In this document: positions 11,465 through 21,342 of the stretch, piece by piece
How the letters are laid out: each line of letters begins with the position of its first letter
How positions within the stretch are numbered: the first letter of the stretch is position 1
NCBI GenBank assembly: GCA_965249725.1
Contig: OZ252251.1
Coordinates: 726,324-790,323, forward strand
Direction of reading: 5' to 3'
Length of the DNA: 64,000 nt
Origin: Longimicrobiales bacterium
Lineage (GTDB): Bacteria > Gemmatimonadota > Gemmatimonadetes > Longimicrobiales > Gaopeijiaceae
Translations under genes and position numbers: made by a program
The notes under the pieces: model-generated
The model's input: the letters and a program-made list of their open reading frames with translations, nothing else
What the model was told of the DNA's origin: nothing
Database searches by the model: none

Positions 11465-13408
11465 TCACGGCCGGGGAGCGACCCTCACCGAAGTGAATGC
11501 GGGGTCGAGGTAGGAGATCCCCACATCGTCCACCACGACCGTGCCGGCGTCGGTCCGGTCGAAGACGAACCGGATCTCCCTGAGGCTTCGGAGATCCAGG
11601 GCCGGCCGGAGCCGTGTGAAGTCCGACAGCGGAATCGAGTACGTCTGTAGCACCAACTCTGCGAGCTCGGTGAACCGCTCTTCCTCCAGATCACCTCGCC
11701 GGAGGATGTGCGTCTCGAGTGGGCGCCGAATCGGCCCGTATGAGCTGAGGGCCACTCTAGCCGAACGACCCTGAGAGTCGACCACCTCGATACTGAGGTC
11801 GACAGGCTCGTCGTCGTCCTCGTCGTCCTCCGCATCCTCACCCTCGTCATCCGTATCGGCTCCCTCCTCGTTCTGCGTGCTGTCTCCCGCAGCGTCCCTC
11901 GGCCCCGGCACGTCCTCGGAAACGGTCAGCGCAATCTGAAGGGACGCCCCCTCTCCCAACCTCCAAGCACGACCCAACGTGTCCGGCACGGAGACGGTAA
12001 ACGTCGAAGGGCGACCCAACTCCTCAGATCCTTTCACCTCTCGGTTCCAGCCCAGCCAGAGCGCTTGGTTCATCTGTGTCGACGAGGTAGTGGGCCGATT
12101 GCGCGAGCGCAGCACCATCTCCCTCTCTCTCCAGGTGGAGAGACTGTCACCGCTCAGGACCACCCCGGCGGCACTGCCTGTGGTCACGTCGATATCCTCT
12201 TCGAACGTGGCCAACGGCTTGAACGTGCCGTCCTCGAACCGAGTCACATACATGGTCTTTGGCAGCCATCCACCGGCAACCCGGTGGTCCCGGAAGAGCG
12301 GCAGAAACTCCGGGTTGCCCCGTAACGAATACTCCAGGAACGCGGAGACGTAGATTCTCGCAAACTCCTGCTGCTCGCTCGGCTCGAGCAGGGGTCTCAG
12401 GTCGAGGGTCCGACCGCTCCGTGGTCCGTTGTCGTGAGGACCCCACACACTGTTCCACTGACCGTGATTCGCCCGATAGACGAAGACGGCCGTCTTCAGG
12501 TGAGGCAATCCGTCGGTGAACTTCACGCGATCATAGAGCCGAAGTCCGTGGAAGCTCGTGACATCCCCGTCGTGCGAACCATGGAACACCATGTAGTTCA
12601 CGTTTTCGACAGGCACGAATCGGTCCGTAGGGAGATACTGCCCGTCGACTGGAGCGATGGCGATGATCGCCTTGATGTCGAAGTTGAAGTCGAACGTCAG
12701 GTTGGCATCGTCGGGGTAGTGGCTGAGCCGGTTGAACGCCGCGGCATGCCCGACCGCTCCCCCGCCCCTGCTGTGTCCCATGAGCGCAAGGTTCTTTATA
12801 TCCACCTTTCCGAAGAACGGGTTCTCGGCGTCTTGGTTGAAGCCGCCCCACGCCTCGAGGTGCTTGAGGAGAAGCCAGCCCCTCGCATCGTTCTCCTGCC
12901 GGATTCCCCCGTTCACGAAATTCATGTCGATCGACGCCAGGATGTAGCCGCGACTCGCCAGGAGCTCACCCAAGTAGTCGTATCCGGGGTCCGAATAGTC
13001 CCGCATGTTGTGATTGCCGTGCACCACCAGCACGAGCGGGAAGAGTCCGGCGCCATCGGGATACCAGACACGCCCGTTCAAGGGGAACTCCTCGGGAGTG
13101 AAGCCCCAGTAGTCATTCCTGGAGTCGGCCTGATCTCCGAGATCGATGAGCTTCGATGCGTCGACGCTCGCGGTGGTGAACTCGACGCCCTCACGGTACT
13201 CGTCACGGTTCTTGTCGTCACCGTGCCCATAAGTAAGGGTGCGTACCGAGAACGGCCCCCGAGAAGCAGGGCTCGATCCCTCCATGAGCTGCCGAGCCAG
13301 AACCGTGGGATGGTCGCTCTCTTCGAGCTGCACCGCACCACGACAACCAGCGATCAAAAGGACCATCAACCCCGCGACGACGAGGCGGCGATGACTCGGA
13401 AAATCCAT
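11465..13408 (-). CDS. alpha/beta-hydrolase lipoprotein
   Basis: Lipobox IAGC; VHGNH, GHSRGG nucleophile elbow, DGDV, ANHGQWN. Confidence 0.85.
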   Translation of the reverse strand: MDFPSHRRLVVAGLMVLLIAGCRGAVQLEESDHPTVLARQLMEGSSPASRGPFSVRTLTYGHGDDKNRDEYREGVEFTTASVDASKLIDLGDQADSRNDYWGFTPEEFPLNGRVWYPDGAGLFPLVLVVHGNHNMRDYSDPGYDYLGELLASRGYILASIDMNFVNGGIRQENDARGWLLLKHLEAWGGFNQDAENPFFGKVDIKNLALMGHSRGGGAVGHAAAFNRLSHYPDDANLTFDFNFDIKAIIAIAPVDGQYLPTDRFVPVENVNYMVFHGSHDGDVTSFHGLRLYDRVKFTDGLPHLKTAVFVYRANHGQWNSVWGPHDNGPRSGRTLDLRPLLEPSEQQEFARIYVSAFLEYSLRGNPEFLPLFRDHRVAGGWLPKTMYVTRFEDGTFKPLATFEEDIDVTTGSAAGVVLSGDSLSTWREREMVLRSRNRPTTSSTQMNQALWLGWNREVKGSEELGRPSTFTVSVPDTLGRAWRLGEGASLQIALTVSEDVPGPRDAAGDSTQNEEGADTDDEGEDAEDDEDDDEPVDLSIEVVDSQGRSARVALSSYGPIRRPLETHILRRGDLEEERFTELAELVLQTYSIPLSDFTRLRPALDLRSLREIRFVFDRTDAGTVVVDDVGISYLDPAFTSVRVAPRP

Positions 13409-13682
13409 GGTCTCTTCCTGCTGTCTGCGGGCGGGACCCAAGAGGTCGGGCCCATACCCTGTCTGGTTCTCGGCGCCTTCACCGCGGATTCTAGGTAGCG
13501 GGTAGCCCGAAGGGCAATTCCTGTCGGGCCGGGCCAAAGGCTGGACCCCGGGCGTCACGTTGGCGAATGTTCCGGGTCACTACAGGGAGTCATGCTCGTT
13601 CCTGACCCATGCTTTCCACGCCACGGAGGAGCCGACGACCGGTCCGCCCACTGGTTCGCCCACTTCAGCAACAGGTGAGTCC

Positions 13683-14168
13683 ATGCCGAATCGCATCGCA
13701 CAATTCACGACCAATCAAGGCGAGTTCAAGGTCGAGCTCTTCGAGGAGCGCGCACCCGAAACGACGAAGAACTTCATCGACCTCGTGGAGAAGGAGTACT
13801 ACGACGGCATCGTCTTCCACCGCGTCATCGAGGGGTTCATGCTTCAGGGCGGATGCCCCACGGGCAACGGCACGGGCGGCCCCGGCTACACGATCGCCGA
13901 TGAGTTCCACCCCGAGCTGCGGCATGACGTCGAAGGTGTTCTCTCGATGGCCAACGCCGGCCCCAACACCGGCGGCTCACAGTTCTTCGTGACTTTGGCC
14001 CCCACGGCCTGGCTCGATGGGAAGCACGCGGTCTTCGGCAAGGTCGTCGACGGCATGGACACCATCCGGGCTATCGGCACGACCGCCACCGGCCCAGGAG
14101 ACAGACCTCTTCAAGAGATCGTCATGGAGCGGGTCGAGATCGTGGGACAGGGCCAGGAAGCCGACTGA
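13683..14168 (+). CDS. cyclophilin-type peptidyl-prolyl cis-trans isomerase
   Basis: FHRVIEGFMLQGG, LSMANAGPNTGGSQFF, WLDGKHAVFGKV. Confidence 0.95.
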   Translation: MPNRIAQFTTNQGEFKVELFEERAPETTKNFIDLVEKEYYDGIVFHRVIEGFMLQGGCPTGNGTGGPGYTIADEFHPELRHDVEGVLSMANAGPNTGGSQFFVTLAPTAWLDGKHAVFGKVVDGMDTIRAIGTTATGPGDRPLQEIVMERVEIVGQGQEAD

Positions 14169-14278
14169 CAAGCATTCTTACGTTTGTCTCGGAATCGTAA
14201 CATTCTGTTGCGTTTTCGGGGAAATAGGTAAATATATTAACAGCTAAGCCTGCTGACCTCTCAGAGGTCAAGTAGGCT

Positions 14279-14291
14279 TAAGTTGTTGATA
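14279..14291 (-). promoter_or_regulatory. IHF-binding consensus site
   Basis: Minus strand TATCAACAACTTA fits WATCAANNNNTTR, about 30 bp upstream of the sigma-54 promoter. Confidence 0.55.
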
Positions 14292-14318
14292 CTATGTCGG
14301 TTGCGGGTCCTGACAAGG

Positions 14319-14335
14319 TTGGCACCGAGATTGCA
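14319..14335 (+). promoter_or_regulatory. sigma-54 (-24/-12) promoter
   Basis: TTGGCACCGAGATTGCA fits YTGGCACN5TTGCW with GG-N10-GC spacing; 58 bp before the operon's first ATG. Confidence 0.85.
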
Positions 14336-14392
14336 TATACCACCCTCACCCGCATGATCTCGGAGTTGTCGTCGACCTGACGGAGGAGAAGG

Positions 14393-15010
14393 ATGTTTAG
14401 GAAGAGAGACGTTTGGCGCATACTGCCTTTCGCCGTGCTGTTCGGTGTTTGGTCCTGCACCGACACACCGACGGACGAAGGCCCCGCCGCGCCCGCTGAG
14501 GGCTTGGCATCTGCGTTCTTCGAAACCGCTCCAGCACCCGGCTTCGCGGCCCACCAGTGGCGTGACTCGCGAGAGAGCCAGATGACGGTGACGCGCACCA
14601 TCGGCGCGGAGGGGGGCGTGATGGAGTTCCGGAAGCTCGGAGCCTCGATCGTCTTCCCAGAGGGCGCCCTCTCGGAGGCAACAACGATCGAGGCGAAGGC
14701 GATCGCCGGCCCGGTCGTGGCCCTCGAGTTCAGTCCGCATGGCATCGACTTTGGCGTGCCCGTGCAGATTCGCATCAATGCACGCATGCTGGCGCCCGGA
14801 TGGGGCGGGAGCCTCGAGAGCGGCGACGAGCTGGGTGAGCACGACGGCGAGGTCCTGCGTCGGCACCTCTCGAAGCTCATAGGCGTCTACTATGTGGGCG
14901 GTCACACATCAGGCGCTGCCCCTCTGGAGACTCTGCCGATGTTCTTCGAGGACGGAGATGTCGTGCTCGAAGTGAGGCACTTCTGCGGCTACGCAGTGGC
15001 GTCGGGTTAG
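14393..15010 (+). CDS. ZU5-like domain lipoprotein with C-terminal HF|C motif
   Basis: Lipobox VWSC; IGAEGG...GASIVFPEGAL and FSPHGIDFGVPVQI ZU5-like patterns; ends VRHFCGYAVASG; GGAG RBS. Confidence 0.75.
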   Translation: MFRKRDVWRILPFAVLFGVWSCTDTPTDEGPAAPAEGLASAFFETAPAPGFAAHQWRDSRESQMTVTRTIGAEGGVMEFRKLGASIVFPEGALSEATTIEAKAIAGPVVALEFSPHGIDFGVPVQIRINARMLAPGWGGSLESGDELGEHDGEVLRRHLSKLIGVYYVGGHTSGAAPLETLPMFFEDGDVVLEVRHFCGYAVASG

Positions 15011-15066
15011 CTGGGAAGGGTGTGACTCGTGCTCGTAAGAGATGCACACTCCAGAGGAACGAATAG

Positions 15067-16128
15067 ATGAACCGCGCCATTGACGTGACAAGTGAATCTC
15101 CGGAAGAGAGACAGGTCAGGGCGGGCGATCTCGCCCGTGCGGGCCGAGAAGCGGAGACCCAGGGAGCCCTAGGTGACTCCCTGGAGAAGCTGACCGCGGC
15201 GTTGGACCTTCTTCCCGATAACGAACCGTCGCCGCTCCGAGCCGACATCCTCCGGTGGCTCGGCACGACGCTTCGCGAACTCGGGCAAACGACCGATGCC
15301 GAGTCCCGCTACGAAGAGAGCAGTGCCCTCTCGCGAGACATCGCATACGGAACCGGCGAAGCCCACGCCCTGAACTGCCTCGCGATCATTGCCCAACGGC
15401 GGGGCGACATGAATGCCGCCCAGTCCAGGTATCGACAGGCCGCGCGCCAGGCAAGCGACTCGGGAGATCACCGACTCGCCGGAATGGTCGAGCAAAACCT
15501 CGGCGTCCTCGCGAACATCCAAGGAGATCTGGACGGTGCCCTCGTGCGCTACCGGGCCAGCCTCAGGGCGTTCGAAGAGGGCGATTTCGAGGAAGGCATG
15601 TCGTGGGTGCTCAACAATCTGGGCATGCTCCACACCGACCTCGGCAAGTACGACGACGCTGAGGAGCACTTTACCCGCGGCCTCGATATCGCCCGCCGTC
15701 GGAAGGACCTTCATACTCAGGCTCTTCTGGAATCGAACCTCGCCGAGGTCTACATCCGACTCGAGCAATGGGAAGCGGCCGAGGCCTACGTAGAAAGGGC
15801 GCTCGGCATCGCTGAAGAGAGGGGCGACCCACTCCGGAAGGCCGACGCTCTCAAGTTCCTCGGCATGATCCAGCGGGCCCAGGGTCACCTCTCCCTCGCA
15901 GACGAGTCTCTTTCGAGCGCCAATCGTCTCGCAGAGGAGAGTGAAGACGCCCTGCTGGCCGCAGAGGTGTGCCGGGAATTGGGGGAGACCCGTGCCCAGA
16001 TGGGACAATACCCTGATGCCACCGAGCTCCTGGAGCGCGCCGTACGGCTCTTCAGAGAAATGAACGCGTCGCTCGACGCCACCAAGGCACAAGAGCGATT
16101 GGATCGGATCCATGCGGACTCCGAATAG
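15067..16128 (+). CDS. stand-alone tetratricopeptide-repeat protein
   Basis: 353 aa of about 40-aa TPR-like repeats (AHALN, QNLGVLANIQGD, LNNLG); no signal peptide. Confidence 0.9.
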   Translation: MNRAIDVTSESPEERQVRAGDLARAGREAETQGALGDSLEKLTAALDLLPDNEPSPLRADILRWLGTTLRELGQTTDAESRYEESSALSRDIAYGTGEAHALNCLAIIAQRRGDMNAAQSRYRQAARQASDSGDHRLAGMVEQNLGVLANIQGDLDGALVRYRASLRAFEEGDFEEGMSWVLNNLGMLHTDLGKYDDAEEHFTRGLDIARRRKDLHTQALLESNLAEVYIRLEQWEAAEAYVERALGIAEERGDPLRKADALKFLGMIQRAQGHLSLADESLSSANRLAEESEDALLAAEVCRELGETRAQMGQYPDATELLERAVRLFREMNASLDATKAQERLDRIHADSE

Positions 16129-16152
16129 ACACCCCAGACCTCGAGGCGAATC

Positions 16153-17211
16153 GTGAGCTATCAACTCGCCAGCAGAGAAGTAGAAGAGACTGTCCCGACC
16201 GGCGACCGCACCGCCACCGATATCGGCTTTCAGGCGATCATCGGGGAGGGCGCCTCGCTCAAGAAGGCGATCGATTTCGCCAAGAGGGTGGCGACCCGAA
16301 AACTGACGACGGTCCTCATTGTGGGAGACACGGGCACCGGCAAAGGCCTGTTCGCCCGCGGCATCCACTACGCCAGCCAGGATGCCCAGGAGCCTTTCGT
16401 CACGGTGAACTGCGCGGCCATCCCCGGGAACCTCCTCGAGTCCGAGCTGTTCGGACACGAACGCGGGGCGTTCACGGATGCCCGGTCGCGGAAGCTGGGT
16501 CTCCTAGAATTGGCAGGAGCAGGTACGCTCTTCCTCGACGAGGTCAGTGAACTGCCTCCCAACCTTCAGCCCAAGCTGCTGCGGGCACTCGAGGAGAGGC
16601 GCTTCCGGAGAATCGGAGGCACGGAGGAGATCGCGGCCAAGTGCCGCCTGCTCGCTGCCGCGAACAGTTCGTTCGAGGATGCGTTGAGCGAAGGGCGTTT
16701 CCGCGAAGACCTGTTCTACCGACTCAACGTCCTCCGCATCAACGTCCCTCCCCTGCGGGAGCGCGGAAAGGACCCGGAGTTGCTGGCGCGCCACTTCATG
16801 GCCGAGATCGCTCGCGAGATGGGCATTGCGCCGAAGGCCCTCCGCAAGGACGCCGTCGAGGTCCTCAATCGCCACGACTGGCCAGGCAATGTCCGAGAGC
16901 TGAAGAACGTCATCCAACGGGCCATCGTGCTGACCGACGGACCGGCCGTGCGTGCCGAGCACCTCAGCATCTTCGGTCGGGCGAGAGTGGACGGGGATGC
17001 CCCGGAGGACCGGGACCGTTCGATCCACATTCCACCCACGGGTCTGCGCCTGTCTGAGATCGAAGCTCAAGCGCTACGCATCACCCTCGACATTACCGGG
17101 GGAAACCGAAGCGCCGCTGCCCGCATTCTCGGCCTCTCTCGGCCCACGGTCCATCGTAAGATCCGGGATTACGGTCTCGACGATCGCAAAAGTCTCGACG
17201 CCACCGCGTGA
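16153..17211 (+). CDS. sigma-54-dependent activator (bEBP) lacking an N-terminal sensor domain
   Basis: GDTGTGK, ESELFGHERGAFTDA, LFLDEV, WPGNVREL, Fis-type HTH; AAA+ domain begins about 25 aa from the start. Confidence 0.95.
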   Translation: MSYQLASREVEETVPTGDRTATDIGFQAIIGEGASLKKAIDFAKRVATRKLTTVLIVGDTGTGKGLFARGIHYASQDAQEPFVTVNCAAIPGNLLESELFGHERGAFTDARSRKLGLLELAGAGTLFLDEVSELPPNLQPKLLRALEERRFRRIGGTEEIAAKCRLLAAANSSFEDALSEGRFREDLFYRLNVLRINVPPLRERGKDPELLARHFMAEIAREMGIAPKALRKDAVEVLNRHDWPGNVRELKNVIQRAIVLTDGPAVRAEHLSIFGRARVDGDAPEDRDRSIHIPPTGLRLSEIEAQALRITLDITGGNRSAAARILGLSRPTVHRKIRDYGLDDRKSLDATA

Positions 17212-17215
17212 CATC

Positions 17216-18937
17216 GTGGAATCGACCACCGCCCTGGGAATCCCGGAGGGTGCCCGAAGCCTGATCGCAGAGGCCAGGGCCGCGGAGCGGCGGGCGCGCC
17301 GAAGCCGCGCCCGCGCGTGTTACGAAGAGGCCCTACGTAGCCTGAATGGCTGGGAACACGGTGCCCTGGCCAGCGCCATCCTCCGGTGGATCGCCCGCAC
17401 CCATTACGAAAGCGGACACCTCGCCGCTGCGATGGACTGCTTCGAGGCGGCCCTGGCCGTAGCCGACGCCCACGACGACATGCTGGGCAAGGCGCACGCC
17501 CTGAACGGCAAGGGCATCGTCGAGCAGCTCCGCGGCAACCTCGAGACGGCTGCCGCCCACTTCGCGTGGAGCCTGGATCGGGCCTCGCGCGCCGGTGACG
17601 CCGCCCTACCCGCGATGATCCATCAGAACCTGGGTGTAATCGCCAACATCCAGGGCGACTTCGCGGAGGCCCTCGTCCAGTACCGCTCCAGCAAAGACGC
17701 GTACGACCGGCTGGGTGAAGACGATCGAGTGGGTCCTCTTCTCAACAACATCGGCCGTCTGCATACGGACCGTGGAGAGTGGAGCGAGGCCGAGGCGGCG
17801 CTCGAAGAGGCGAGCCGTCGCTGTGTCGAATCAGGCGACGTGGACCATCACGTCCACGCTCAGGTGAACCTCGCGCGCCTCTGGATCGCCCGAGGGGACC
17901 TAGAGCGAGCCCGGGCCTCCTGCGATACCGCGTGCAACGTCTCGCGCGATGTCGCGGAGGGTCGATGGTCCGGAGAGATCTTGAAGCACTACGGCACCAT
18001 CTACCGGCTGACCAAGCGACCGGAACTCGCGCTCGACTCTCTGCGACAGGCGCGACTCCTCGCAGATGACCAGAGGAACACGCTCTTGGCCGCCGAGATC
18101 GCACGAGAATTCGCCGACGTCTACGCCGATCAGGGGCGGAATCGGGACACACTGAGGGCGCTGAACGAGTGTCTACGACTCTTCTCGGAGTTCCAAGCCA
18201 AGCACAACCTGGCCGAGGTGAGGGACCGGATCTCTCGTCTCGAGTATCGCTTCCTGGACGTGGTCTGCTCCTGGGGAGAGTCCATCGAATCGAAGGACCG
18301 CTACACACAGGGTCACTGTGAACGAGTGGCGGACCTGGCCTGCGCCCTGGCGACCGCGGCCGGCCTGGACAAGGACGTTCTGACCTGGTTCCGCATGGGC
18401 GCGCTTCTCCACGACCTCGGCAAGATCGCCGTGCCCTCGTCCATTCTGAACAAGCCGGGCGCCCTTACGGCGGAGGAGTGGGTCATCATGAAGCGGCATC
18501 CGGAAGCCGGGGTCGAGCTCCTCCAAGGCATCGAGTTCCCATGGGACATCCGACCCATGCTGCGCCACCACCACGAGCGCTGGGACGGATCTGGATATCC
18601 GCACGGCCTGATGGGGGCCGACATCCCCCTTTCAGCTCGGATCCTGTGCCTGGCCGACGTGTTCGACGCTCTCACGACAGACCGCAGCTACCGGAGTGGA
18701 CTGCCCCCCGACCAAGCGATGTCGGTCATGCGGAACGAGGCAGGCTCCACATTCGACCCGCACCTGTTCGGCGTGTTCGAGGGCTTGTCTCAGGACTCCC
18801 CTCGGCGGTGGGCGACACGCTCGGCCCGCGATCGCCGCCGCAAGCCGGTGGGCACGCCACACCTCATACCGGTGGCGGGGGCGCTCAGCTCGCCCATCCC
18901 TCGCCGAACCCTGCCGCCGCAGGAAATCTGGGCCTAG
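17216..18937 (+). CDS. TPR-domain HD-GYP cyclic-dinucleotide phosphodiesterase
   Basis: N-terminal TPRs; YTQGH, LHDLGK, HHHERWDGSGYP, ADVFDALT; GTG start just after the bEBP stop. Confidence 0.9.
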   Translation: MESTTALGIPEGARSLIAEARAAERRARRSRARACYEEALRSLNGWEHGALASAILRWIARTHYESGHLAAAMDCFEAALAVADAHDDMLGKAHALNGKGIVEQLRGNLETAAAHFAWSLDRASRAGDAALPAMIHQNLGVIANIQGDFAEALVQYRSSKDAYDRLGEDDRVGPLLNNIGRLHTDRGEWSEAEAALEEASRRCVESGDVDHHVHAQVNLARLWIARGDLERARASCDTACNVSRDVAEGRWSGEILKHYGTIYRLTKRPELALDSLRQARLLADDQRNTLLAAEIAREFADVYADQGRNRDTLRALNECLRLFSEFQAKHNLAEVRDRISRLEYRFLDVVCSWGESIESKDRYTQGHCERVADLACALATAAGLDKDVLTWFRMGALLHDLGKIAVPSSILNKPGALTAEEWVIMKRHPEAGVELLQGIEFPWDIRPMLRHHHERWDGSGYPHGLMGADIPLSARILCLADVFDALTTDRSYRSGLPPDQAMSVMRNEAGSTFDPHLFGVFEGLSQDSPRRWATRSARDRRRKPVGTPHLIPVAGALSSPIPRRTLPPQEIWA

Positions 18938-18973: not shown

Positions 18974-20809
18974 CTACCGATACCCTGCCGCCTGAAGGGT
19001 GAAGAGTTCGGCGTAACGGCCCTCCAGCGCGAGGAGCTCCTCGTGGGTCCCTTCCTCCTTCACGCTTCCGTGCTCGAGCACGACGATTCGATCGGCCATG
19101 CGCACCGTTGAGAAGCGGTGGGAAATCAGCACGGCCATTCTTCCGCGGGTCAACTCGGCGAACCGCTCGAAGACGTGGTATTCGGCCTTCGCGTCCAGGG
19201 CTGCGGTGGGCTCGTCGAGGATGAGTACTTGGGCATCACGCATGTAGGCGCGGGCGAGTCCGACCTTTTGCCACTCCCCGCCAGAGAGGTTGGCCCCACC
19301 GTCGAACCGTCGGCCGAGCATATGTTCGAAACCCTCTTCGAGCTCGGACACGACCGTGTCTGCCAGGCTGTCTTCGGCCGCTCGGGCGATACGCGACTGA
19401 TCCCCCAGGGCCTCGATCTGACCTACCGCGATGTTCTCCCGCATGATCAGATCGTAGCGGACGAAGTCCTGGAAGATGACCCCGATCGCCCGGCGCAACT
19501 CGCTCACGTCGTACTCCTTGAGGTCCACCCCGTCCAGGAGAATGCGTCCTTCATCGGGGTCGTATAGCCGAGCCAGGAGCTTCACGAGCGTGGTCTTCCC
19601 TGCACCGTTCTCGCCGACGAAGGCAACTCGATCGTCGGCCCCCAATCGGAGGGAGACGTTGCGAATGGCCCACCGGTCGCTGTCGGGATACCGGAAGCCG
19701 ACGTTCTCGAACACGATCCCGTCCTTGATGGGGCGAGGTATCGGCACCGGATCGGCCGGGCACGGAGCCGCAGGCGTCATCTCCAAGAAGGTGAAGAGAT
19801 CGCGGAGGAACAGGCTCTGCTCGTAGACGTCGGCGGAGCGCAACAGGATGCCACTGATCAGGGCCCTGCTACGCTGGCAAGACCCCACCAGGAATGTCAG
19901 GTCTCCTAGCGAGAGAACCCCGCGGACGGTATCGACGATGATGAAGACGCTGGCGGCGTAGTACCCCAGCGTCGACACCGCAGTCAGTCCGCCCGAAGTG
20001 GCCGCGCGCCTGGTCGAGAGTGCCTTGTTCGCTTCGTAGAACTTGTCCGCCAGACGTTCGTACTTCCGGGTGAAGTAGTCCGACAGACCGAAGAGCTTCA
20101 CTTCCTTCGCCGTCACGTTGCTCGTGGCCACGTACCGCAGGTAGTCCAGTTCCCTGCGCTCGGGGGTCCACTTGAACAGCAGCGAGTACGACAGACCGGC
20201 GAAGTGGGTCTCGCCGATGAACGACGGCAGTACCGCCACGACGAGCAGAAGCAGGAGCCAGACATTGAACGCCACGAGCACGACGAGAAGAGAGGCCAGG
20301 GTCAGGGCGCTTTGGCCGATGCCCAGAAGGAGTGCCACCAGCCCGATTCTCCCCACGGTCTGTCGGCGGGCCCTCTCGAGCGAATCGTAGAACTGAGGAT
20401 CCTCGAAGTTCTCCAGATCGAGCGTCGCGGCGTGCTCCATGATGCGCACGGAGAGGCGGTTGCCGAACAGGTCGGCCAAGAGACTCTCCAGAAGGTTGGA
20501 GGCTCTTTGGAAGAGGTCGGACACGAGGGCGACCGCCAGCTCCAGCGCCACCAGACGCATAATGCCCGTCCAGTCCGGCTGCGCGGCCCCGATGTTCGCC
20601 ACCACCGCATCGATGATGAGCTTCCCGATCCACAGCTGCACGACCGGTGAGAACGCGAGCACCAGCCGTAGCGATACGATCGCTGTGGCATAGTAGGGCT
20701 GGGCGCGCCAGACCATGCGCAGAAAGCGTGGCACAAGGCGGAGCGCCACCAAGCGCTCCCTGAAGGGTGGAAGATCGACGGAACGACGGCGCCCGAGACC
20801 CGGAGGCAC
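18974..20809 (-). CDS. ABC transporter, fused permease/ATP-binding protein
   Basis: TM domain; GENGAGKT, LSGGEWQK, LILDEPT. Confidence 0.95.
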   Translation of the reverse strand: MPPGLGRRRSVDLPPFRERLVALRLVPRFLRMVWRAQPYYATAIVSLRLVLAFSPVVQLWIGKLIIDAVVANIGAAQPDWTGIMRLVALELAVALVSDLFQRASNLLESLLADLFGNRLSVRIMEHAATLDLENFEDPQFYDSLERARRQTVGRIGLVALLLGIGQSALTLASLLVVLVAFNVWLLLLLVVAVLPSFIGETHFAGLSYSLLFKWTPERRELDYLRYVATSNVTAKEVKLFGLSDYFTRKYERLADKFYEANKALSTRRAATSGGLTAVSTLGYYAASVFIIVDTVRGVLSLGDLTFLVGSCQRSRALISGILLRSADVYEQSLFLRDLFTFLEMTPAAPCPADPVPIPRPIKDGIVFENVGFRYPDSDRWAIRNVSLRLGADDRVAFVGENGAGKTTLVKLLARLYDPDEGRILLDGVDLKEYDVSELRRAIGVIFQDFVRYDLIMRENIAVGQIEALGDQSRIARAAEDSLADTVVSELEEGFEHMLGRRFDGGANLSGGEWQKVGLARAYMRDAQVLILDEPTAALDAKAEYHVFERFAELTRGRMAVLISHRFSTVRMADRIVVLEHGSVKEEGTHEELLALEGRYAELFTLQAAGYR

Positions 20810-20838: not shown

Positions 20839-21342
20839 TCAACCCTCGTCGTCCTCCGGGGCCCGGTTGCCGAATTCCCGGTCCAGCATGAGAAGAGCGG
20901 CCTGGTCGTCACCAGCCATCTTCACCTGATCGCTAGCGGCTGAAGCGCTATCCTCCTCTTCGACCTGCTCGGCGATGAACCACTGCAGCTCCTGCTGCGC
21001 CGCCCAGTCGCCCTCCTCGCCCGAGAGTTCGAAGAGGCGGTGGATGAGAGCCGTCACCTTCTGCTCATGGGCCAAGACGCTCTCGAATATCTCCGCCGGA
21101 GGTCCGAACTGCGTCTGGGGTCCGTCGATGGCCTGAAGCTCGACCCGGCCGCCGCGACGCAGCACGTGATCGTACAGCCGCAGAGCGTGCTCCAACTCCT
21201 CCTGAGCCTGAAGCTTCATCCAGTGGGCGAAACCGGGAAGGTTCTCGGCCTCGAAGTGGGCGGATATGGACAGGTAAAGATATCCGGAAAAGAGCTCGTC
21301 TTTGATCTGCTCGTTGAATGCGGCCTGCACCTTGTCGTTCAT
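20839..21342 (-). CDS. ftnA: non-heme ferritin
   Basis: QIKDELFS, QAQEELEHA, HEQKVT, WFIAEQVEEE ferroxidase motifs. Confidence 0.9.
   Translation of the reverse strand: MNDKVQAAFNEQIKDELFSGYLYLSISAHFEAENLPGFAHWMKLQAQEELEHALRLYDHVLRRGGRVELQAIDGPQTQFGPPAEIFESVLAHEQKVTALIHRLFELSGEEGDWAAQQELQWFIAEQVEEEDSASAASDQVKMAGDDQAALLMLDREFGNRAPEDDEG

Follow-up and report, generated by a model that had tools for sequence, protein, structure and literature searches.

Within a 64,000-nucleotide stretch of the genome of a Longimicrobiales bacterium (contig OZ252251.1, positions 726,324 to 790,323; hereafter the window), four co-oriented and packed genes (14393-18937, + strand), standing behind an exact sigma-54 promoter, encode a lipoprotein of the ZU5/GAIN fold, a protein made of tetratricopeptide repeats (TPR) only, a sensor-less sigma-54 activator (bacterial enhancer-binding protein, bEBP) and a TPR-HD-GYP protein. 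The pairing of such a lipoprotein with TPR proteins is recurrent across Gemmatimonadota and may be an undescribed peptide signalling route. We propose, with a probability of about 0.45, that the operon is an envelope-to-cytoplasm peptide relay, in which a self-cleaved tail peptide of the lipoprotein would be imported and read by the TPR modules.

The gaps between the four genes measure 56, 24 and 4 nucleotides, and a consensus terminator scan found no terminator-like site inside the operon on the + strand. The best explanation is that they form one sigma-54-dependent operon. An earlier reading of the same DNA, made from the letters alone (hereafter the original prediction), had described such an operon behind a near-consensus sigma-54 promoter; every element of it was found in place, and the promoter proved to match the consensus exactly. 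This match to TGGCAC-N5-TTGCW is one of just four on both strands of the 4.16-Mb genome, which encodes rpoN. The cassette is more than a chance arrangement, since its gene order is repeated in divergent genomes and its promoter is kept in 9/9 orthologous upstream regions, the alignment of which shows TGGCA[CT]-N5-TTGC[AG] at the same distance. More generally, a sigma-54 match at 9 or more of 11 positions occurs within 400 nucleotides upstream of 27 of the 74 ZU5 genes, for about 2.4 expected from the background of the same loci. Elsewhere in the window's own genome, a 10/11 sigma-54 match (C1 position 469962, + strand, outside the window) lies 92 nucleotides upstream of a gene for a lipoprotein of about 208 amino acids, which gave no match in the search of this genome for the ZU5 family.

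The lipoprotein combines a signal peptide carrying a lipobox cysteine (Cys22, at 14456-14458) with a beta-sandwich that extends from about residue 55 to residue 205. It ends, as the original prediction had read it, in HF-CGYAVASG; the presumed cut site His196-Phe197|Cys198 is encoded at 14978-14986, and positions 14984-15007 encode CGYAVASG, the octapeptide that would be released. Pfam matches the protein to ZU5 over residues 67-102 only (27.6 bits for a cut-off of 21). In an AlphaFold model (mean pLDDT 84.7), HF|C sits at the turn between the strands 189-196 and 199-204. The ten best Foldseek matches of this model are all ZU5 domains (ankyrin, UNC5b, ZO-1; E values of 6e-6 to 2.6e-4), and the VIA Z scores are 10.8 (rmsd 2.9, 118 residues aligned), 9.7, 9.1 and 8.2 against ZU5 domains, 7.5-5.5 against GAIN domains, 5.8 and 4.8 against the FIIND domains of CARD8 and NLRP1, respectively, and 3.7 against Nup98. 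Fold and position of the cut motif thus agree with the ZU5 assignment that had been suggested from the sequence; as judged from the model, the lipoprotein belongs to the autoproteolytic ZU5 superfamily defined by Zhang et al. (PMC3482391), and its self-cleavage is predicted.

A search of 1.84 billion cluster representatives returned 623 relatives at E ≤0.001. Among the best 150 of these 623, the length is mostly 180-215 amino acids, and nearly all combine a canonical lipobox with an end of the type HFS-[G/R]-Y-x-x-x-x near the C-terminus. The HF[S/C] motif of the original prediction is kept throughout a family that counts at least 623 cluster representatives. All members of an 84-sequence alignment share the lipobox cysteine, H196, F197 and Y200, and conservation reaches at least 90% at S198 and G199; a cysteine instead of serine at the position of the nucleophile is limited to the window's close clade (P0001-P0006). 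HF[S/C/T] occurs in the last 32 residues of 66 of the 68 small ZU5 frames of the loci described below, and it is followed by 7 residues in 33 frames, 8 in 18 (51/66 with 7 or 8 residues), 10 in 5 and 13-23 in 10. NCBIfam holds no family for the lipoprotein, and the protein atlas holds only clusters of "hypothetical proteins" for it, commonest in Gemmatimonadota.

Two genomes (L049 and L062) possess two modules each, unlike one another in tail as well as in TPR paralogue: one tail reads SRYMLAS[D/G], the other SRYILIS plus an extension. Such joint differences fit tail-TPR pairs, as far as can be judged from the sequences. In these two genomes, the lipoprotein of the activator-containing module (L049:8698-9366 and L062:8734-9417) carries after HFS a longer, cysteine-rich tail (SRYILIS..VWVCVEGC..).

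The TPR-only protein possesses neither a signal peptide nor a membrane segment (maximum 19-residue hydropathy, 0.85). The same holds for the TPR proteins of the related loci: the hydropathy maximum is at most 1.66 in 83 of 84 TPR-bearing frames and none is membrane-like in the protein proper, the sole frame at 1.82 (L069) reaching this value at position 6, in a stop-to-stop extension upstream of the likely start. Since the TPR proteins lack a membrane segment, an exported lipoprotein is tied to cytoplasmic sensors. The fourth protein of the operon (HD_5, 136.5 bits; TPR_12, 84.5 bits, in Pfam) carries its TPR at residues ~55-330 and, C-terminal to it, an HD-GYP domain at residues ~357-517, the HD, HHE..D and GYP motifs of which are intact in the translation (LHDLGK and RHHHERWDGSGYPHGL). 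With these motifs it qualifies as an HD-GYP phosphodiesterase domain, the enzyme activity of which is predicted. The paralogy that the original prediction had seen between the two TPR modules is borne out by reciprocal searches, in which the TPR-only query matches the HD-GYP frame at 1e-38 and the TPR part of the HD-GYP protein matches the TPR-only protein at 2e-40; in L002, an 80%-identical relative, the two paralogues share about 32% identity over 290-305 residues. Compared with the PDB, the TPR profile matches KLC1 (7.5e-26), Pins/LGN (~1e-25), NprR (3.5e-9) and RapJ (1e-8). By profile similarity, these TPRs are of the kinesin-light-chain/LGN type, the nearest solved relatives of which bind short linear peptides in their groove. 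Nothing above the NCBIfam cut-offs was found for the TPR-only, activator and TPR-HD-GYP proteins.

The activator comprises a Sigma54_activat domain (210 bits, residues 29-196), an AAA lid and an HTH_8 domain (residues 300-340), which upholds the earlier description of a bEBP with AAA+ and helix-turn-helix (HTH) domains only; the stretch ahead of the AAA+ domain is just 28 residues long. In the loop that contacts sigma-54, GAFTDA stands in place of GAFTGA, as it does in 13 of 16 sensor-less relatives. The score of 247.8 bits against the NCBIfam PspF model (TIGR02974), for a cut-off of 443.55, together with the domain content, indicates a sensor-less bEBP architecture but not a PspF orthologue. 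A TPR-only gene lies directly upstream of 16 sensor-less activators of at most 400 amino acids, and L047 has one such activator without it. A complex prediction for the TPR-only protein (alignment A3) and the activator (alignment A4) scored 0.05 against a mark of 0.32, without controls, and is uninformative either way.

A profile search of 401 Gemmatimonadota genomes gave matches in 113 of them (a tally that includes the unpublished genome G057), with family counts of 62/166 in f4, 38/93 in f5 and only 4/70 in f1, the window's own family. We took ~18 kb around 60 higher-ranking matches, leaving out G057, second matches in stretches already taken and some very short contigs; genes were defined as stop-to-stop frames and classed with profiles built here from the window proteins and their family. 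A TPR or TPR-HD-GYP gene directly follows the ZU5 gene on the same strand in 44/60 loci and lies within 6 kb of it in 52/60. An activator is found within 6 kb in 21/60 loci. The co-occurrence with TPR, TPR-HD-GYP and bEBP genes that the original prediction had called for is therefore strongly recurrent, and the lipoprotein-TPR link is independent of the activator, because 39/60 loci have no activator within 6 kb. Where the direct link is missing, the locus mostly shows one of three situations: a large multidomain ZU5 protein (L079, L086, L095, L098), a frame that is truncated or at the end of a contig (L052, L090), or a divergent cluster (L063-L065, L067, L082).

The linkage spans the families f1, f3, f4, f5, f9 and f11, in several gene orders. 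The lipoprotein gene may be followed by a TPR-HD-GYP gene, or, as the window shows, by TPR, activator and TPR-HD-GYP genes; the TPR genes may come after one to three lipoprotein genes in tandem; in f4, a second unit (activator, lipoprotein-like gene, TPR) may adjoin the first; and a further arrangement includes a giant protein of about 1600 amino acids that combines TPR, HD-GYP, GGDEF and STAND NTPase. These giant proteins (L064:151-4923, - strand; similar frames in L044-L046, L063, L065, L067, L073, L078 and L082) consist of an N-terminal TPR, HD-GYP, GGDEF, an AAA_16/STAND NTPase and a second TPR block, and their genes either follow those of a solute-binding protein (SBP) and two permeases or stand immediately downstream of the lipoprotein gene.

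As a control we used a 201-genome sample from the phylum of L003's genome (G401, labelled Myxococcota), where ZU5 homologues at E ≤1e-8 occur in 40/201 genomes. None of the 23 inspected ZU5 loci of this sample has a TPR, activator, HD-GYP or SBP neighbour within 1.5 kb, and the ZU5 domain there sits in larger proteins, with further domains after it. An all-against-all clustering of the 3078 frames that lie at most 6 kb from a small ZU5 gene in the Gemmatimonadota loci left ZU5, TPR/HD-GYP, bEBP, SBP_bac_5 and permease as the only widely recurring classes, along with antisense shadow frames that are also common to many loci. DUF2784 (10 loci) and others were set aside as recurring neighbours, as they look like local synteny.

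This clustering revealed an OppA/DppA-type binding protein and two permeases (SBP_bac_5, 199-222 bits; BPD_transp_1, 52-58 bits, in Pfam). An SBP_bac_5 gene is present in 32/60 loci, flanking the module in 26/60, and absent from 28/60. In L063-L065, L067 and L082, the order is SBP, permease, permease and giant TPR-HD-GYP gene, divergent from the lipoprotein gene; in L078, the TPR-HD-GYP gene likewise has two permease genes next to it, arranged differently. Just 4-5 SBP_bac_5 matches each are present in five of these genomes. In a quick maximum-likelihood tree the linked SBPs fall into clades of their own (17 rows with a branch support, SH-aLRT, of 92 and 13 rows with 100), and unlinked paralogues of the same genomes are placed elsewhere. 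The original prediction had named the lack of an importer as its weak point. This is eased by the related loci, which carry dedicated SBP_bac_5 genes, some of them with permeases, and it stands for the genome under study, which has none linked.

The peptide relay that we propose starts from the observed genes, promoter, fold, motif position, cytoplasmic nature of the TPR proteins and recurrent linkage, including the importer genes of relatives; from these we infer the cleavage, release, import, peptide-TPR binding and TPR-activator contact, as well as the sign of each effect. The lipoprotein would be exported and lipid-anchored, and its ZU5/GAIN-type domain would cut itself between Phe197 and Cys198 through an N-to-S acyl shift, the nucleophile being a serine in most relatives. 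Because only the last beta-strand follows the cut, the octapeptide CGYAVASG would be the sole product besides the anchored domain, and it would probably be retained in the sandwich as long as the domain is not unfolded, degraded or stripped. The freed peptide would then be taken up by an Opp/Dpp-type ABC importer, to be bound in the groove of the two paralogous cytoplasmic TPR modules. The module fused to the HD-GYP phosphodiesterase would set cyclic-dinucleotide turnover, and the free-standing TPR protein would control the sensor-less activator in trans, and hence the operon's own promoter, thereby forming a feedback loop. A peptide would be the simplest account of the link, because an exported protein with the catalytic triad is tied to cytoplasmic TPRs and to a peptide-type importer, and the only product it could yield is 7-8 residues long.

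Several observations weigh against this proposal. Close orthologues devoid of the HF[S/C] nucleophile keep both the GYAVASG end and the TPR and bEBP neighbours; their tails read '...ELRGYAVASG' in L043, '...HRFIGYAVASG' in L041 and '...ARYLGYAVASG' in P0010-P0012. Likewise, the lipoprotein-like gene beside the activator in f4 ends in GF[T/S]RYA[I/L]AY, with the histidine missing. The fold itself leads one to expect that S-x-Y and the strand behind it are conserved, and it accounts in part for the conserved tail; since proteins of this fold family generally have an aromatic residue and a strand after HFS, tail conservation alone is no proof of a signalling role. By analogy with GAIN domains and with their bacterial MAIN counterparts, in which the cleaved strand stays bound, release would need a trigger, and for the present family the cleavage, the peptide and its binding are predictions. 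In the window's genome no SBP is linked to the module: the three SBP_bac_5 genes present are far from the operon, have no sigma-54 match of 10 or 11/11 near them, and join the unlinked paralogues, on long branches, in the quick tree. As an argument, the importer therefore applies to the family and not to this copy. SBP_bac_5 proteins, moreover, also bind nickel, haem, opines and sugars. Lastly, the locus counts are not independent events, because the loci come from related genomes, and the frames behind them were classed with self-built profiles. On the whole, the original prediction gains from the fold, the motif, the recurrent linkage and the importer genes of relatives, and it is weakened by the orthologues without nucleophile and by the absence of a linked SBP here.

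The lipoprotein-like gene of f4 that lacks the histidine is a second, weakly similar one, and it stands between the gene of a 456-residue activator and a TPR-only gene (L081:4477-5157, L083:11791-12432 and L097:12348-13058).

The persistence of the operon in orthologues without nucleophile is also what one would expect of a regulatory unit with a co-regulated envelope protein and no peptide at all. In such a unit, the TPRs would sense a cytoplasmic cue or each other, as RcbA and RcbB do, and control the activator and the phosphodiesterase, the lipoprotein being the product that is switched on. The place of the lipoprotein gene, first behind the sigma-54 promoter, agrees with this, and so does the case of Vibrio vulnificus, where a TPR protein was described to de-repress a TPR-GGDEF enzyme by TPR-TPR contact (PMC12282931). 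However, the lipoprotein and TPR genes are adjacent in 44/60 loci and 39/60 have no activator within 6 kb, so that their link is more than that of the first gene of a sigma-54 operon to the others. The HFS motif and its very short tail, kept in 66/68 frames, would also be left without a reason, as would the dedicated SBP and permeases, and no other envelope gene recurs in the neighbourhood clustering. We regard this explanation as unlikely.

Those same SBP and permeases may instead suggest a sensing coupled to uptake, where the linked transporter would import an environmental or cell-wall peptide read by the TPRs, and the ZU5 lipoprotein, instead of being the source of the signal, would assist in the periplasm, for example as a binding partner or gate of the SBP. 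The SBP clades and permeases are dedicated and share operons with TPR-HD-GYP genes, and the top structural matches of the lipoprotein include ZU5 domains of ankyrin and ZO-1 that serve uncleaved as binding modules. Yet the lipoprotein-TPR pair is kept in all the loci without a linked SBP, which are the window and about half of the others (28/60), and a pure binding module has no need of the conserved catalytic HFS triad; we find this account quite improbable. The triad would be equally superfluous if the cytoplasmic TPRs bound the C-terminal tail of the lipoprotein precursor before its export, in the manner of the TPR chaperones of secretion systems that double as co-activators, TPR occupancy then reporting on the capacity for export or lipoprotein processing. 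Such monitoring would solve the problem of topology without import, and, as it does not need cleavage, it fits the orthologues without nucleophile. TPR domains often grip C-terminal peptides, and the tight packing or overlap of the genes suggests co-translation. But tails with 10-23 residues after HF also occur beside TPR genes (L073, L056), so that a free carboxylate at a fixed distance is not required, the linkage to SBP and permeases would not be explained, and Sec substrates normally leave fast. This last alternative appears very unlikely to us. Set beside these three, the peptide relay is the reading that we retain for the cassette.

The promoter is preceded by two further features (Table 1). 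The A+T-rich region, with repeats such as TTAC (14178-14181) and GTAA (14197-14200), is a candidate activator-binding and DNA-bending region. The hairpin downstream of it was not called by the consensus terminator scan because it lacks a T run; at its place, the orthologues have a G+C-rich stem of different sequence in the upstream alignment. Rather than being bound by a protein, this hairpin likely serves to terminate or insulate the upstream gene. We had also considered the palindrome at 14247-14280 as an activator-binding site and rejected it, as it is part of this very stable hairpin, the stem of which is conserved but not the sequence. At the other end of the operon, the open frame of the TPR-HD-GYP gene begins at 16952, upstream of its likely start.

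Table 1. Features of the operon and of its upstream region (positions in the window)
Feature	Position	Strand	Description and basis
A+T-rich region	14170-14235	+	Partly conserved TTAC...GTAA-type repeats; alignment of 9 orthologous upstream regions
Hairpin between cyclophilin gene and promoter	14236-14290	+	Very stable; fold -34.2 kcal/mol, z = -7.2
Sigma-54 -24/-12 promoter	14320-14335	+	TGGCACcgagaTTGCA; sole exact TGGCAC-N5-TTGCW match in the window
Ribosome-binding site of lipoprotein gene	14382-14387	+	GGAGGA; sequence
ZU5/GAIN-fold lipoprotein	14393-15010	+	205 amino acids; N-terminus MFRKRDVWRILPFAVLFGVWSC, C-terminus VRHFCGYAVASG; Pfam ZU5, model, alignment
Cytoplasmic TPR-only protein	15067-16128	+	353 amino acids; Pfam TPR_12, 146 bits
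Sensor-less sigma-54 activator (bEBP)	16153-17211	+	352 amino acids; AAA+, lid, Fis-type HTH (Pfam)
TPR-HD-GYP protein	17216-18937	+	573 amino acids from likely GTG start at 17216; HD_5, TPR_12 (Pfam)

Among public genomes, the region has its closest relative in one of Longimicrobiales (Gemmatimonadota), with an 80%-identical lipoprotein and synteny throughout. Upstream of the operon, a gene for a cyclophilin-type prolyl isomerase (13560-14168, + strand) is syntenic in L002 and precedes the operon in most orthologous loci; next to it, 11465-13558 (- strand) encodes a 697-residue alpha/beta-hydrolase with weak chlorophyllase/PETase-like matches and a long acidic stretch, also syntenic in L002. 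Downstream, an MsbA/HlyB-like ABC exporter half-transporter (18974-20809, - strand) is convergent on the operon, 37 nucleotides from its end. An MsbA-like exporter (82% identity) is likewise found after the operon in L041, which lacks the TPR-HD-GYP gene. This exporter was dropped as a part of the cassette because none was seen beside the more distant modules. Just past the exporter gene lies an open frame of 167 amino acids (20839-21342, - strand), which looks ferritin- or Dps-like by eye only.

Literature searches found no description of the cassette. The statement of the original prediction that none was known stands in this respect; it has to be narrowed for the cleavage chemistry, as HFS autoproteolysis of bacterial GAIN-like "MAIN" domains, which serve as release modules of large surface proteins, was described in 2026. 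It is conceivable, and we advance it tentatively, that in Gemmatimonadota the last strand of such a domain is freed as a signal of 7-8 residues, imported by an Opp-type system and read by TPR receptors that set cyclic di-GMP turnover and sigma-54 transcription, be it between cells or as an envelope report from periplasm to cytoplasm. The freed strand would correspond to the tethered agonist of adhesion G-protein-coupled receptors. Diderm phyla would thereby have their first RRNPP-like circuit, and a C-terminal fragment of bacterial GAIN-like domains would be seen for the first time to act in signalling. If so, information would cross the envelope without a transmembrane receptor, and a principle of animal signalling, in which GAIN/ZU5 autoproteolysis exposes a short agonist strand, would turn up in bacteria in connection with second messengers and sigma-54 control. 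Peptide signalling through cytoplasmic receptors would then reach beyond Firmicutes into an abundant, poorly studied phylum of soil and sea, and the authors of the MAIN study would have a case for their question of whether the C-terminal fragment of a bacterial GAIN-like domain ever signals. Even if our reading is wrong, a conserved and unexplained cassette links an exported lipoprotein of a self-cleaving type to cytoplasmic TPR enzymes, and it is small enough to be tested.

Among the known systems, the activator resembles those of the PspF type in being made of AAA+ plus HTH, with few residues ahead of AAA+; its proposed partner is a TPR protein and not PspA, a partnership suggested by gene order. 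The pair of TPR proteins recalls RcbA and RcbB of V. vulnificus, where, according to their description (PMC12282931), a TPR gene lies beside that of a TPR-fused cyclic di-GMP enzyme and the TPR protein gates the enzyme. That enzyme, unlike the one considered here, is a GGDEF cyclase and not an HD-GYP protein, and the description of the system includes no lipoprotein, sigma-54 activator or peptide.

The lipoprotein itself shares with the MAIN/ZU5/GAIN/FIIND/Nup98 superfamily the beta-sandwich and an H-hydrophobic-S/T/C motif in the turn before the last strand, and with MAIN domains the location in a secreted, envelope-anchored protein. The HFS domain of Bacillus subtilis YfkN, a distant relative of the lipoprotein domain, was reported to be cut between F and S, the cleavage being abolished by S1346A, and the cleavage products of MAIN domains to stay together (Brogan & Rudner, bioRxiv 10.64898/2026.05.12.724683). 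MAIN proteins are described there as running from a signal peptide through enzymes or adhesins and the MAIN domain to a C-terminal anchor, which leads to the release of a large ectodomain. In contrast, the lipoprotein studied here has an N-terminal lipid anchor, a stand-alone domain and 7-8 residues after the cut, so that only a peptide could be released. According to the main text of the MAIN paper, the C-terminal fragment has so far been linked to no signalling, and that text makes no mention of lipoprotein, TPR, HD-GYP, ZU5 or Gemmatimon.

The proposed logic is that of the RRNPP systems (Rap-Phr, NprR-NprX, PlcR-PapR, and PrgX with the OppA-like PrgZ), in which an exported precursor is encoded beside a cytoplasmic TPR receptor and an Opp-type binding protein is sometimes found in the same locus; enterococcal pheromones also stem from lipoproteins. 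The TPR profile does match NprR and RapJ, but the TPRs of KLC and LGN are much closer to it than the RRNPP receptors. Instead of a gene for a short secreted propeptide, the neighbour of the putative receptor is that of a 205-residue folded lipoprotein, for which C-terminal self-cleavage is proposed, whereas RRNPP propeptides of 40-60 amino acids are cut by other proteases. The RRNPP receptors place their effector, an HTH or phosphatase domain, N-terminal to the TPR; here the TPR-only protein carries nothing besides its TPR, the HD-GYP domain stands on the C-terminal side, and the outputs would be the HD-GYP enzyme and the sigma-54 activator. Finally, RRNPP systems are described as systems of Firmicutes (PMC10075063), and the present host belongs to a diderm phylum. 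We regard the cassette as real, conserved and unpublished, with a logic that is RRNPP-like, but with a precursor, a maturation, outputs and a host that differ.

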